IMG/VR virus record: IMGVR_UViG_3300022751_000013
Span: 1 to 38,396 of that record
From: a virus
Reading direction: 5' to 3' (one strand)
Length of the DNA stretch: 38,396 nt
The notes beneath the pieces are model-generated. The model was given only the letters and a program-made list of their open reading frames with translations, was not told the origin of the DNA and searched no databases. The translations under genes were made by a program, and so were the position numbers. This document shows, piece after piece, positions 27,543 to 27,966 of the stretch (the stretch's first letter is position 1; each line of letters opens with the position of its first letter).

Positions 27543-27966
27543 AGCTCTTCTCCTATACTTTGTTATTGAAATGATAGTGGCGCATACAACTTGTACAGGG
27601 TAGGACTCAAGTTATTGCGTTCGCCAGTGGTAGCTACATAGCGTATCCATGCACCACTACGACTTCAATACTGTTAATAATCTTGGAGCTAGGGATGATT
27701 ACACCTCACATCTCACGACCCATAGTAAATGGTTAACTACTCTCGTGCGTGTTAGCTTGTCTCACACCCTAGCTTTGTATCTATATAGACATGGTCTTCT
27801 ATTGGACTTGGCTCGAAAGCCTCGTGAAGCGGCAGATTACTCTTTTCGCTACCCTTCTATACAGATGGTTTGTTGCCAACGGATTTTCCCTTTCGGGACA
27901 CGATTTCTCGGACTCACCGTTACGGTCTCTAGCTCCTGTAGGGGAGCATCTCGGGCAACTTAATAA
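27543..27966 (-). ncRNA. Candidate large structured RNA A (~420 nt, unknown class), immediately 3' of the HNH-AP2 gene.
   Basis: There is no same-strand ORF here. On the minus strand I read a GAAA tetraloop hairpin (27887-27898), a UUCG hairpin (27810-27821), an 11-bp helix 27575-85/27649-59 with a minus-strand G-U pair, and several mutually exclusive long-range 6-8 bp pairings. Confidence 0.45.

Follow-up and report, generated by a model that had tools for sequence, protein, structure and literature searches.

A probable structured intercistronic spacer of two exchangeable modules, with a candidate RNase III stem, beside an endonuclease gene of a metagenomic phage

The locus examined here raises the question of what a long, gene-free and strongly folding segment does directly 3′ of a homing-type endonuclease gene. 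It lies in a 38.4-kb metagenomic phage contig (IMG/VR record IMGVR_UViG_3300022751_000013; ENA ERZ27228458 k141_1805046; a 100% identical fragment is present in a Logan assembly), the whole of which is referred to as the window hereafter. The segment, called block 2, covers 424 nucleotides (nt) at positions 27543–27966, and its transcribed (sense) strand is the minus strand. A first-pass annotation had regarded it as a large structured RNA and had considered an intron remnant, a control element of a homing cassette and a nuclease-associated RNA as its possible identities. Three answers were obtained. One is that block 2 is non-coding and most likely folds as RNA on the transcribed strand. Another is that it is a composite of two separate exchangeable modules, referred to as U1 and U2. 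The last, which we favour but hold only tentatively, is that block 2 may be a structured spacer in an early polycistronic messenger RNA (mRNA), with the long stem of U2 as a candidate RNase III site.

Folding and modular make-up of block 2

Block 2 extends from the base after the stop codon of the HNH-AP2 endonuclease gene (27967–27969) to the base before the ATG at 27542. No minus-strand open reading frame (ORF) of at least 30 amino acids was found inside it, and it is among the longest stretches without a minus-strand ORF of at least 35 amino acids, being the longest internal one. Since all three stop codon types are present in every minus-strand frame, stop-codon recoding hides no gene there. 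Two plus-strand ORFs and a 55-codon read-through frame gave no Pfam match. The homologs of the HNH-AP2 protein terminate at the same C-terminus as the window protein; thus, block 2 is not a decayed extension of that gene. On these grounds (stops in all frames, no Pfam match and the shared C-terminus), a hidden gene was ruled out. The ORF list, the stop codons and the AGGAG at 27550–27554 also confirmed the earlier delimitation of an ORF-free block of about 420 nt between the HNH-AP2 stop codon and the next ribosome-binding site. The G+C content of the block is 0.46, as compared with about 0.40 in the flanks.

The folding of block 2 is clearly strand-specific. The RNA fold of the minus strand has −123.8 kcal/mol (z = −3.79), and none of 100 shuffles was as stable, while z is −0.85 for the plus strand. 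Among 60 non-overlapping 424-nt windows of the phage, block 2 ranks first for both stability and z (z about −3.8 to −4.3). Of the ten GNRA/UNCG tetraloop hairpins that the window has on its minus strand, two fall within block 2, which makes up 1.1% of the sequence. The interpretation as a folded RNA is based on this strand-specific stability, on the tetraloops and on compensatory changes in the 3′ hairpin across three phages, and the proposal of a structured non-coding RNA is supported by the same evidence. The hairpins and the helix previously picked out by eye were recovered in the minimum-energy fold or in a repeat scan: UCCC-GAAA-GGGA (27887–27898), GGCU-UUCG-AGCC (27810–27821), the local hairpins ACCG-UAA-CGGU (27916–27926) and GCUCC/GGAGC (27932–27947), and an 11-bp helix (27575–27585/27649–27659), which belongs to a 22-pair stem (27564–27585/27649–27670) with one C·C mismatch.

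The modules were compared mainly with two other phages. L010 (IMG/VR 3300022924_000015) is a mosaic relative, and L100 is a more distant phage of 36.9 kb that was reached via homologs of a 56-amino-acid protein. The features of the locus are as follows, in the 5′ to 3′ direction of the minus strand.

27967–28473, minus strand: HNH-AP2 endonuclease gene, 168 amino acids; the 5′ neighbour, outside the RNA element
27683–27966, minus strand: U1, 284 nt, three predicted domains; found in the available data only in this phage and in L100
27872–27959, minus strand: domain A of U1, a predicted multi-branch junction that has GUUGCC/GGCAAC as its closing helix and contains four hairpins, of which two are GAAA-capped
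27779–27866, minus strand: domain B of U1, a predicted 11-bp stem (AUCUGUAUAGA/UCUAUAUAGAU) with a branched apex carrying the cUUCGg hairpin of 27810–27821
27688–27773, minus strand: domain C of U1, a predicted long irregular hairpin (GCUAGGG.../...CCCUAGC), the 3′ strand of which has an alternative partner at 27926–27936
27671–27686, minus strand: single-stranded linker CCAAGAUUAUUAACAG, which three phages have kept on the 5′ side of the hairpin (consensus CAAGRKUAWWAACAG)
27564–27670, minus strand: U2 hairpin, with arms 27649–27670 and 27564–27585 and a variable apex 27586–27648
27540–27554, minus strand: AGGAG Shine-Dalgarno sequence (27550–27554) and ATG (27540–27542) of the next gene, 60 amino acids, 27360–27542

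In the wide sense, U2 covers 27543–27682, i.e., the hairpin, the linker and the region of the ribosome-binding site, and its fold has z = −3.04. Only two islands, 27651–27682 and 27548–27580, are common to block 2 and L010. Both are 100% identical, and they correspond to the two arms of the U2 hairpin, while the apex between them is unrelated and is 116 nt long in L010 as against 63 nt in the window. The U2 homolog in L010 was detected by nhmmer at E = 1.6e-10. The stem consists of 9 bp, a C·C mismatch and 13 bp in the window (4 of the 22 pairs being G·U) and of 9 bp, the same C·C mismatch and 18 further pairs with one bulged C in L010. At the same position, L100 has a hairpin of 8 bp, a G·G mismatch and 13 bp, which differs almost wholly in sequence. 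The total numbers of stem pairs are thus 22, 27 and 21 for the window, L010 and L100, respectively. Common to the three phages are GYGCA/UGCGC in the upper stem, the linker on the 5′ side and a Shine-Dalgarno sequence 9–14 nt downstream (in the window, that of the 60-amino-acid gene starts 9 nt past the stem). The homology of the L100 hairpin rests on synteny, on the linker, on the position of the mismatch and on the GYGCA/UGCGC motif.

When the 20-nt arms of the three phages were aligned, having been cut by hand to fit the stem and with the bulged C of L010 removed, all 19 pairs were standard in all three, 13 of them were changed on both sides, and 100% of the cells were paired, as against 26–54% in slid controls. 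Because of this fitting, the result indicates that pairing is kept at a syntenic hairpin and is not an independent proof of homology. Judging from these comparisons, the base pairing of U2 is conserved. Each stem contains three or four G·U pairs, which become A·C on the opposite strand and are thus mismatches there, and the orientation of U2 relative to the genes is identical in every phage. On the minus strand of the 38.4 kb, only two stems have at least 19 pairs and at most one mismatch: one is U2, and another is the closing stem of the other ORF-free block, described below. The only other stem of such length is a 23-pair inverted repeat with one mismatch (1619–1642/1883–1906, plus strand), which spans 288 nt in a 662-amino-acid ORF. 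When IMG/VR and JGI metagenomes were scanned with exact patterns of the U2 arm, the L010 phage was the only find apart from chance matches in an unrelated bacterial locus.

U1 has a minimum free energy of −87.5 kcal/mol (z = −4.10), and none of 200 shuffles was as stable; its division into three domains is a predicted one. U1 is absent from L010, where a 79-amino-acid ORF and a 70-nt hairpin are found in place of the HNH gene and U1, between the same conserved junction sequences. The sole relative of U1 lies in a 334-nt ORF-free block of L100 (4493–4826), which starts with a multi-branch domain having the same closing helix, GUUGCC/GGCAAC, and an ACCGU hairpin. Collinear exact matches between block 2 and this L100 block comprise GTTGCCCG, AGACCGTA, TGGCAACAAA, TCACGAG and TGTCTAT. 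The chain of these matches amounts to 40 nt, a value reached by 1 of 3000 dinucleotide shuffles, which makes the homology of the two probable. A covariance model of U1 gave no match over 90 sources, and a pattern of three anchors from domain A returned the L100 phage again and nothing else. MAFFT/RNAalifold misaligned domain A of the window and L100 and gave no pairs. Another large gap of L100 (3488–4105) was considered as well, and it is probably an uncalled coding region (z = −0.70).

The first-pass annotation had also pointed to segments with two alternative partners as a sign of a switch. The repeat scan verified that the region of 27685–27695 is complementary both to 27767–27774 and to 27926–27936. 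When the pairing of 27685–27695 with 27926–27936 was forced, the fold became 11.8 kcal/mol worse than the minimum, and a long-range closing helix formed by these segments was rejected for this cost. A switch in which an outer helix sequesters the downstream start region was rejected as well: the duplex energies are at the background level, with 12%, 82% and 27% of background windows pairing at least equally well. Competition of a switch-like kind may nevertheless occur in block 2. The fourfold occurrence of CUCAC on the plus strand (27705, 27712, 27761 and 27913) was found to be correct in its positions, but it carries no significance, as 80% of shuffles hold some 5-mer at least four times.

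A candidate RNase III stem between same-strand genes

An idealised RNase III substrate has 22 bp, corresponding to two A-helical turns, and mismatches or loops steer the enzyme to single-strand cuts that leave stabilising 3′ hairpins (PMC3867540). The early polycistronic precursor of T7 contains five such processing signals (PMC3867540). With its 22 pairs and one C·C mismatch, the U2 stem has the form expected of an RNase III stem, i.e., about 20–22 bp, often with an internal loop or a mismatch. It resembles the T7 early signals of the R1.1 type in three respects: it is a hairpin of about two turns that a mismatch or internal loop interrupts, it would be situated between cistrons of a long early transcript just 5′ of the next ribosome-binding site, and it is conserved in sequence between related phages. 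It differs from them in that its cleavage is a prediction, in its large (63–116 nt) and branched apex, which is exchanged as a whole between relatives, in the probably Gram-positive host, and in the separate 284-nt multi-domain fold (U1) attached on the 5′ side. Analogous RNase III sites occur in the early RNA of the Bacillus phage SP82.

The position of U2 in the presumed transcript is consistent with such a signal. It lies between genes of the same strand, and neither a promoter nor a terminator was predicted in block 2. In particular, no intrinsic terminator was found in 27543–27966, where the U2 stem is followed by ACAAAGUAUAGGAG, and promoters 5′ of U1 or in the U2 arm were found neither by scanning nor, as conserved elements, by eye. 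The sole predicted intrinsic terminator of the region is located about 300 nt downstream (27237–27262, minus strand); thus, two small cistrons, the last of the transcription unit, lie beyond the spacer. This terminator is found just past a 37-amino-acid gene and is followed by an extended −10-like sequence, TGGTATTAT (about 27210–27235). In three other relatives (L103, L104 and L107), terminator hairpins followed by a promoter-like TTGAC were found at the same place. These features suggest a boundary of the transcription unit about 300 nt downstream of block 2.

If block 2 acts as a processing signal, the U2 stem, with two turns of A-form helix, would be cut by the double-strand-specific RNase III of the host in the same way as the intercistronic signals of T7. 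After the cut, the last two small cistrons of the unit would no longer be coupled to the cistrons 5′ of the stem, the HNH gene among them, and the hairpin ends left behind would set the stability or translation of the cistrons. As for U1, it would serve as a protective 3′-end structure of the upstream fragment, or else it would be set free as a stable RNA. We infer from the arrangement of the locus that the block is transcribed as part of an operon and is cleaved by RNase III, and the same applies to any role of U1.

Several points weigh against this interpretation. Because RNase III sites have no reliable sequence signature, the assignment is based on stem length, position and analogy. The spacer is dispensable, since the relative L109 has none before the homologous small gene. 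The U2 comparison comprises three sequences in two lineages only, and any two hairpins aligned by hand in such a manner would give apparent covariation. As for U1, it is more elaborate than a processing site requires. Its ordinary alignment with the L100 block is weak (z = 1.3 for global and 2.3 for local alignment), and a covariance model built from the single U1 sequence misses L100 even with filters off; for these reasons the homology is regarded as probable and not as certain. With two very different sequences, no U1 helix is open to covariation. Finally, when DNA parameters are used, the folds of both strands beat their shuffles (z = −3.53 and −2.75), which would suit a role at the DNA level.

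Competing explanations

Among the alternatives, the one that survives best, although we consider it unlikely, is that block 2 is a source of stable non-coding RNAs excised from the operon: closing stems like those of ribosomal RNA precursors would release U1, the U2 apex or both as trans-acting RNAs, e.g., a regulator or an anti-defence decoy. The multi-branch junction of U1 and three stable tetraloops exceed the needs of a cleavage site, the four-way junction of the sister block is conserved, its junction bases included, and further large structured blocks, some of which have tRNA-like T-arms, occupy equivalent places in relatives. However, neither a promoter nor a terminator brackets U1, which is found in two phages only and has no known target or partner, and close relatives have different modules, which speaks against one essential function in trans. 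A more specific version, in which U1 and the RNA of block 1 would form a new class of stable phage RNAs, cut by RNase III at their closing stems and acting in trans, appears improbable to us. In that case, U1 might be, for example, an early-to-late regulator or a host-defence decoy, and the modules at these slots would be alternative weapons swapped by recombination.

A similarly low weight is given to a DNA-level element, either a signal for single-strand or lagging-strand initiation or a set of inverted-repeat recombination points at mosaic boundaries. Besides the DNA-parameter folds mentioned above, it may be noted for this explanation that the conserved U2 arms are islands of 100% identity flanking swapped modules, as are some ten further junction islands shared by the window and L010, and that the early region yielded no recognisable replication initiator gene. 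The arrangement resembles the promoter-early stem-loop (PeSL) cassettes and the boundary sequences at mosaic joints in T4-type and lambdoid phages, where short, highly conserved intergenic sequences with stem-loops flank swapped modules. The descriptions of these cassettes and boundaries are of promoter-bearing substrates for recombination at the DNA level. In contrast, block 2 has no predicted promoter and shows a tolerance of G·U pairs on the sense strand, as is typical of RNA: these pairs keep the stems paired on that strand, the orientation relative to the genes is constant in every phage, and the stability with RNA parameters is strongly one-sided. An iteron region, the DNA-level alternative named by the first-pass annotation, was not found: the direct repeats of block 2 are two-copy and at chance level only, and the block has no A+T-rich segment, being richer in G+C than its surroundings.

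Antitermination in the style of HK022 put or the Bacillus EAR element, in which the nascent fold would let the polymerase pass the terminator about 300 nt downstream, is decidedly unlikely. The spacer is indeed located upstream of the only nearby predicted terminator (27237–27262), and in relatives the homologous small gene is likewise followed by terminator-like hairpins. The put and EAR elements are, however, compact conserved folds and not 22-bp duplexes, no Rfam match was obtained, and at this position the relative L108 has an unrelated structure and L109 has nothing.

The view that block 2 is non-functional filler left by modular recombination is given just as little weight. It would explain why the spacer is dispensable in L109 and why its content differs between close relatives. 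Moreover, arbitrary 200-nt windows are only mildly unusual (z from −2.2 to −2.6). On the other hand, hardly any shuffle, or none, folds as stably as U1 (z about −4) and U2 (z about −3), stable tetraloops are enriched, and the U2 pairing survives 13 double changes.

The proximity of the HNH-AP2 gene might suggest an RNA of the homing cassette, serving in the control of its expression or mobility or as a partner of the nuclease. The HNH-AP2 protein matches PHROG 374 (‘HNH endonuclease’) at E = 1.5e-51, has a weak Pfam AP2 match, and has 5028 homologs at E < 1e-10, the best non-self identity being 50–60%. In favour of a link, domain A lies 7 nt from the HNH stop codon, and U1 and the HNH gene share one swapped module in the single comparison with L010. 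Against it, the two were found to occur separately. L010 keeps U2 without an HNH gene there, and the sole U1 relative, in L100, stands behind a gene for a 128-amino-acid protein without an HNH match in Pfam. Conversely, at 74 IMG/VR loci of HNH-AP2 homologs, the next same-strand ORF starts at a median of 28 nt past the stop codon, and 12 gaps reach 250 nt. Unusually stable folds were found in 3 of 21 gaps of 150–600 nt at such loci, two of the three being the same locus type. No U1 was found by nhmmer or by the U1 covariance model at the 74 loci, and no relevant RNA was found by Rfam at the 16 loci with the longest gaps. Thus, the RNA does not travel with the endonuclease, as the first-pass annotation had suggested checking; its proposals of a nuclease-associated RNA and of a mobility- or expression-control element fall with the same evidence, since the modules occur without the HNH gene and the HNH family occurs without the modules. 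Little credence therefore remains for a homing-cassette RNA, which is largely refuted. From the comparison of these loci, the HNH-AP2 gene is most likely a mere neighbour in an exchangeable slot 5′ of the spacer. HEARO, the omega RNA of IscB, likewise is a large structured RNA adjoining an HNH-domain gene, but here the protein is a homing-type HNH-AP2 protein of 168 amino acids without RuvC, the RNA is located 3′ and not 5′ of the gene, no HEARO match was obtained with Rfam, and the association is missing across the protein family.

Two observations on endonucleases of the window may be added. Residues 86–102 of the HNH-AP2 protein are the counterpart of the ‘DHID...N..NLR’ core of HNH_3, with an invariant Arg at the expected first His in this protein and in 27 aligned homologs, and the Pfam HNH models miss the protein although PHROGs label the family as HNH endonuclease. 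A second free-standing gene of the homing type is found in the same early region (23867–24442; 191 amino acids, NUMOD4 and HNH_3).

Hardly any weight is left for a group I or other intron, or its remnant, carrying the HNH gene: an endonuclease gene beside a GNRA-rich structure of about 400 nt is indeed the classic picture of a phage group I intron, and introns with HNH ORFs in SPO1, Twort and T4 likewise have this gene adjoining several hundred nt of such structure, but here no gene is interrupted (the flanking 60-amino-acid genes are complete, the upstream one with its own stop at 28490 and the downstream one with its own AGGAG and ATG), both flanking genes are absent from L010 while U2 is kept there without the endonuclease, block 2 consists of two independent modules, and the Intron_gpI, Intron_gpII and ribozyme models gave no match at E up to 10. 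For Intron_gpI, a model that is weak for some phage subgroups, neither the whole window at the gathering score nor 27300–28100 with permissive filters at E up to 10 gave a match.

Other known RNAs were also sought. The Rfam search that had been proposed at the outset gave no family at the gathering threshold in the window (Rfam 15), and the sole match of the permissive mode in 27300–28100 was ilvH, at 20.4 bits as against a threshold of 55.1 (E = 0.25). Nothing relevant was obtained with Rfam at the gathering score on the window and 24 related loci or in the E-value mode on both blocks. ARAGORN called no tRNA or transfer-messenger RNA in the window and relatives, and blastn of block 2 and of half the window against 50,697 phage records returned no match. 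As far as these searches reach, block 2 belongs to no described family and is probably of an ordinary kind, a structured intercistronic spacer known from two or three rare phages.

Structured modules of the phage group

The window contains a second ORF-free block, block 1 (29221–29651; z = −4.51). Its core (29303–29551, minus strand) is a four-way junction with a closing stem of about 20 bp and three hairpins and is not in Rfam; for CAUGGC, at the start of the third helix, the 3′ GCCAUG is a possible second partner. The conserved motifs are CAUGGAC, UUCWWCAUGRCU, AGUCAGCURG and GCAGCCAUG. A covariance model built from block 1, named R2, detected relatives at 700–961 of L109 (65.7 bits), 648–937 of L103 (46.8 bits) and 255–501 of L108 (40.1 bits), and a reduced one at 3349–3429 of L010. 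Independent folds of the window and L103 sequences gave the same architecture. Over four sequences, 97% of the cells in the block-1 pairs were paired, as compared with about 32% in slid controls, and 24 pairs change on both sides. This covariation indicates that the phage group holds conserved folded elements, most likely RNA, in the sense orientation in the early region.

Block 1 and block 2 are alike in that they occur in the same phage group, on the same strand and between cistrons, with closing stems of about 20 bp and similar flanks (UUAACA before and ACAAAG..UAUAG after). They differ in the fold, as block 1 is a four-way junction with its own motifs. R2 gave no match in 27543–27966 at E up to 10, the block-1 motifs are absent from block 2, and blastn between the two blocks gave matches of 7–12 nt only; thus, they are not detectably homologous. 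A correspondence of U1 domains B and C to P3 and P4 of block 1 (a CUAUAUAG stem followed by an AGCUAG stem) was rejected, because the resemblance has no statistical support.

The same slots are occupied by different structures in the relatives. In L108, the small gene found after U2 in L010 and L100 is immediately preceded by an RNA of the block-1 type, at exactly the position that block 2 has in the window. Other ORF-free and well-folded blocks were found at comparable places in L013 (z = −4.56), L010 (z = −6.08) and L103 (z = −4.46). It was also found that L013 (6202–6817) and L010 (3450–3535) contain tRNA-like pieces, with a T-arm loop UUCGAAU or UUCGAUU and an acceptor-like stem, that of L013 ending in ACCA; ARAGORN and Rfam called no tRNA in these pieces. 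A match to three anchors of block 1 occurs at 1482–1628 of a 35.5-kb contig labelled as an uncultured Anaerolineales metagenome-assembled genome (CAYZKS010000015.1), and the covariance model does not confirm it; the contig is perhaps a phage binned into a bacterial genome.

About a dozen islands of 25–50 nt with 95–100% identity are present at gene junctions between the window and L010, amid sequence that is unrelated or about 92% identical. Examples in the window are 31704–31743, 31306–31337, 28903–28937, 25607–25658 and 24596–24623. On this comparison, the islands are readable as the signature of modular exchange at conserved boundary sequences. The phage group thus keeps and exchanges different stem-closed structured modules at a few early intergenic slots.

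All genes of the window are on the minus strand. The recognisable ones encode ERF, NinG, a small SLT-domain protein, the small and large terminase subunits, an r1t-type holin and a CHAP lysin, and the holin and the lysin point to a Gram-positive host. Most of the early proteins have no PHROG match. The SLT-domain ORF (29652–29930) has a GTG start 113 nt after a 73-amino-acid membrane-anchor ORF (30044–30265), the gap being 29931–30043. Upstream of the GTG, the SLT frame stays open and reads as a linker-like sequence (TIEPKAAVEPLNKPTAPLTNEEI); L010 shows the same layout, and Pfam SLT covers only positions 4–83 of 117. This layout could reflect a frameshift, an unusual start codon or a two-part lysin.

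If the RNase III reading holds, block 2 would be a further case of structured punctuation in phage polycistronic mRNA; this would be unsurprising, and it would help in annotating a poorly known group of Gram-positive phages. The analysis also removes a tempting false lead, as an endonuclease gene together with 400 nt of tetraloop-rich structure appears here to be neither an intron nor a guide-like RNA. The wider pattern may be worth following: different strongly folded, stem-closed modules are found at the same intergenic slots of related phages, and for block 1, which is one such module, the covariation is clear and Rfam has no family.

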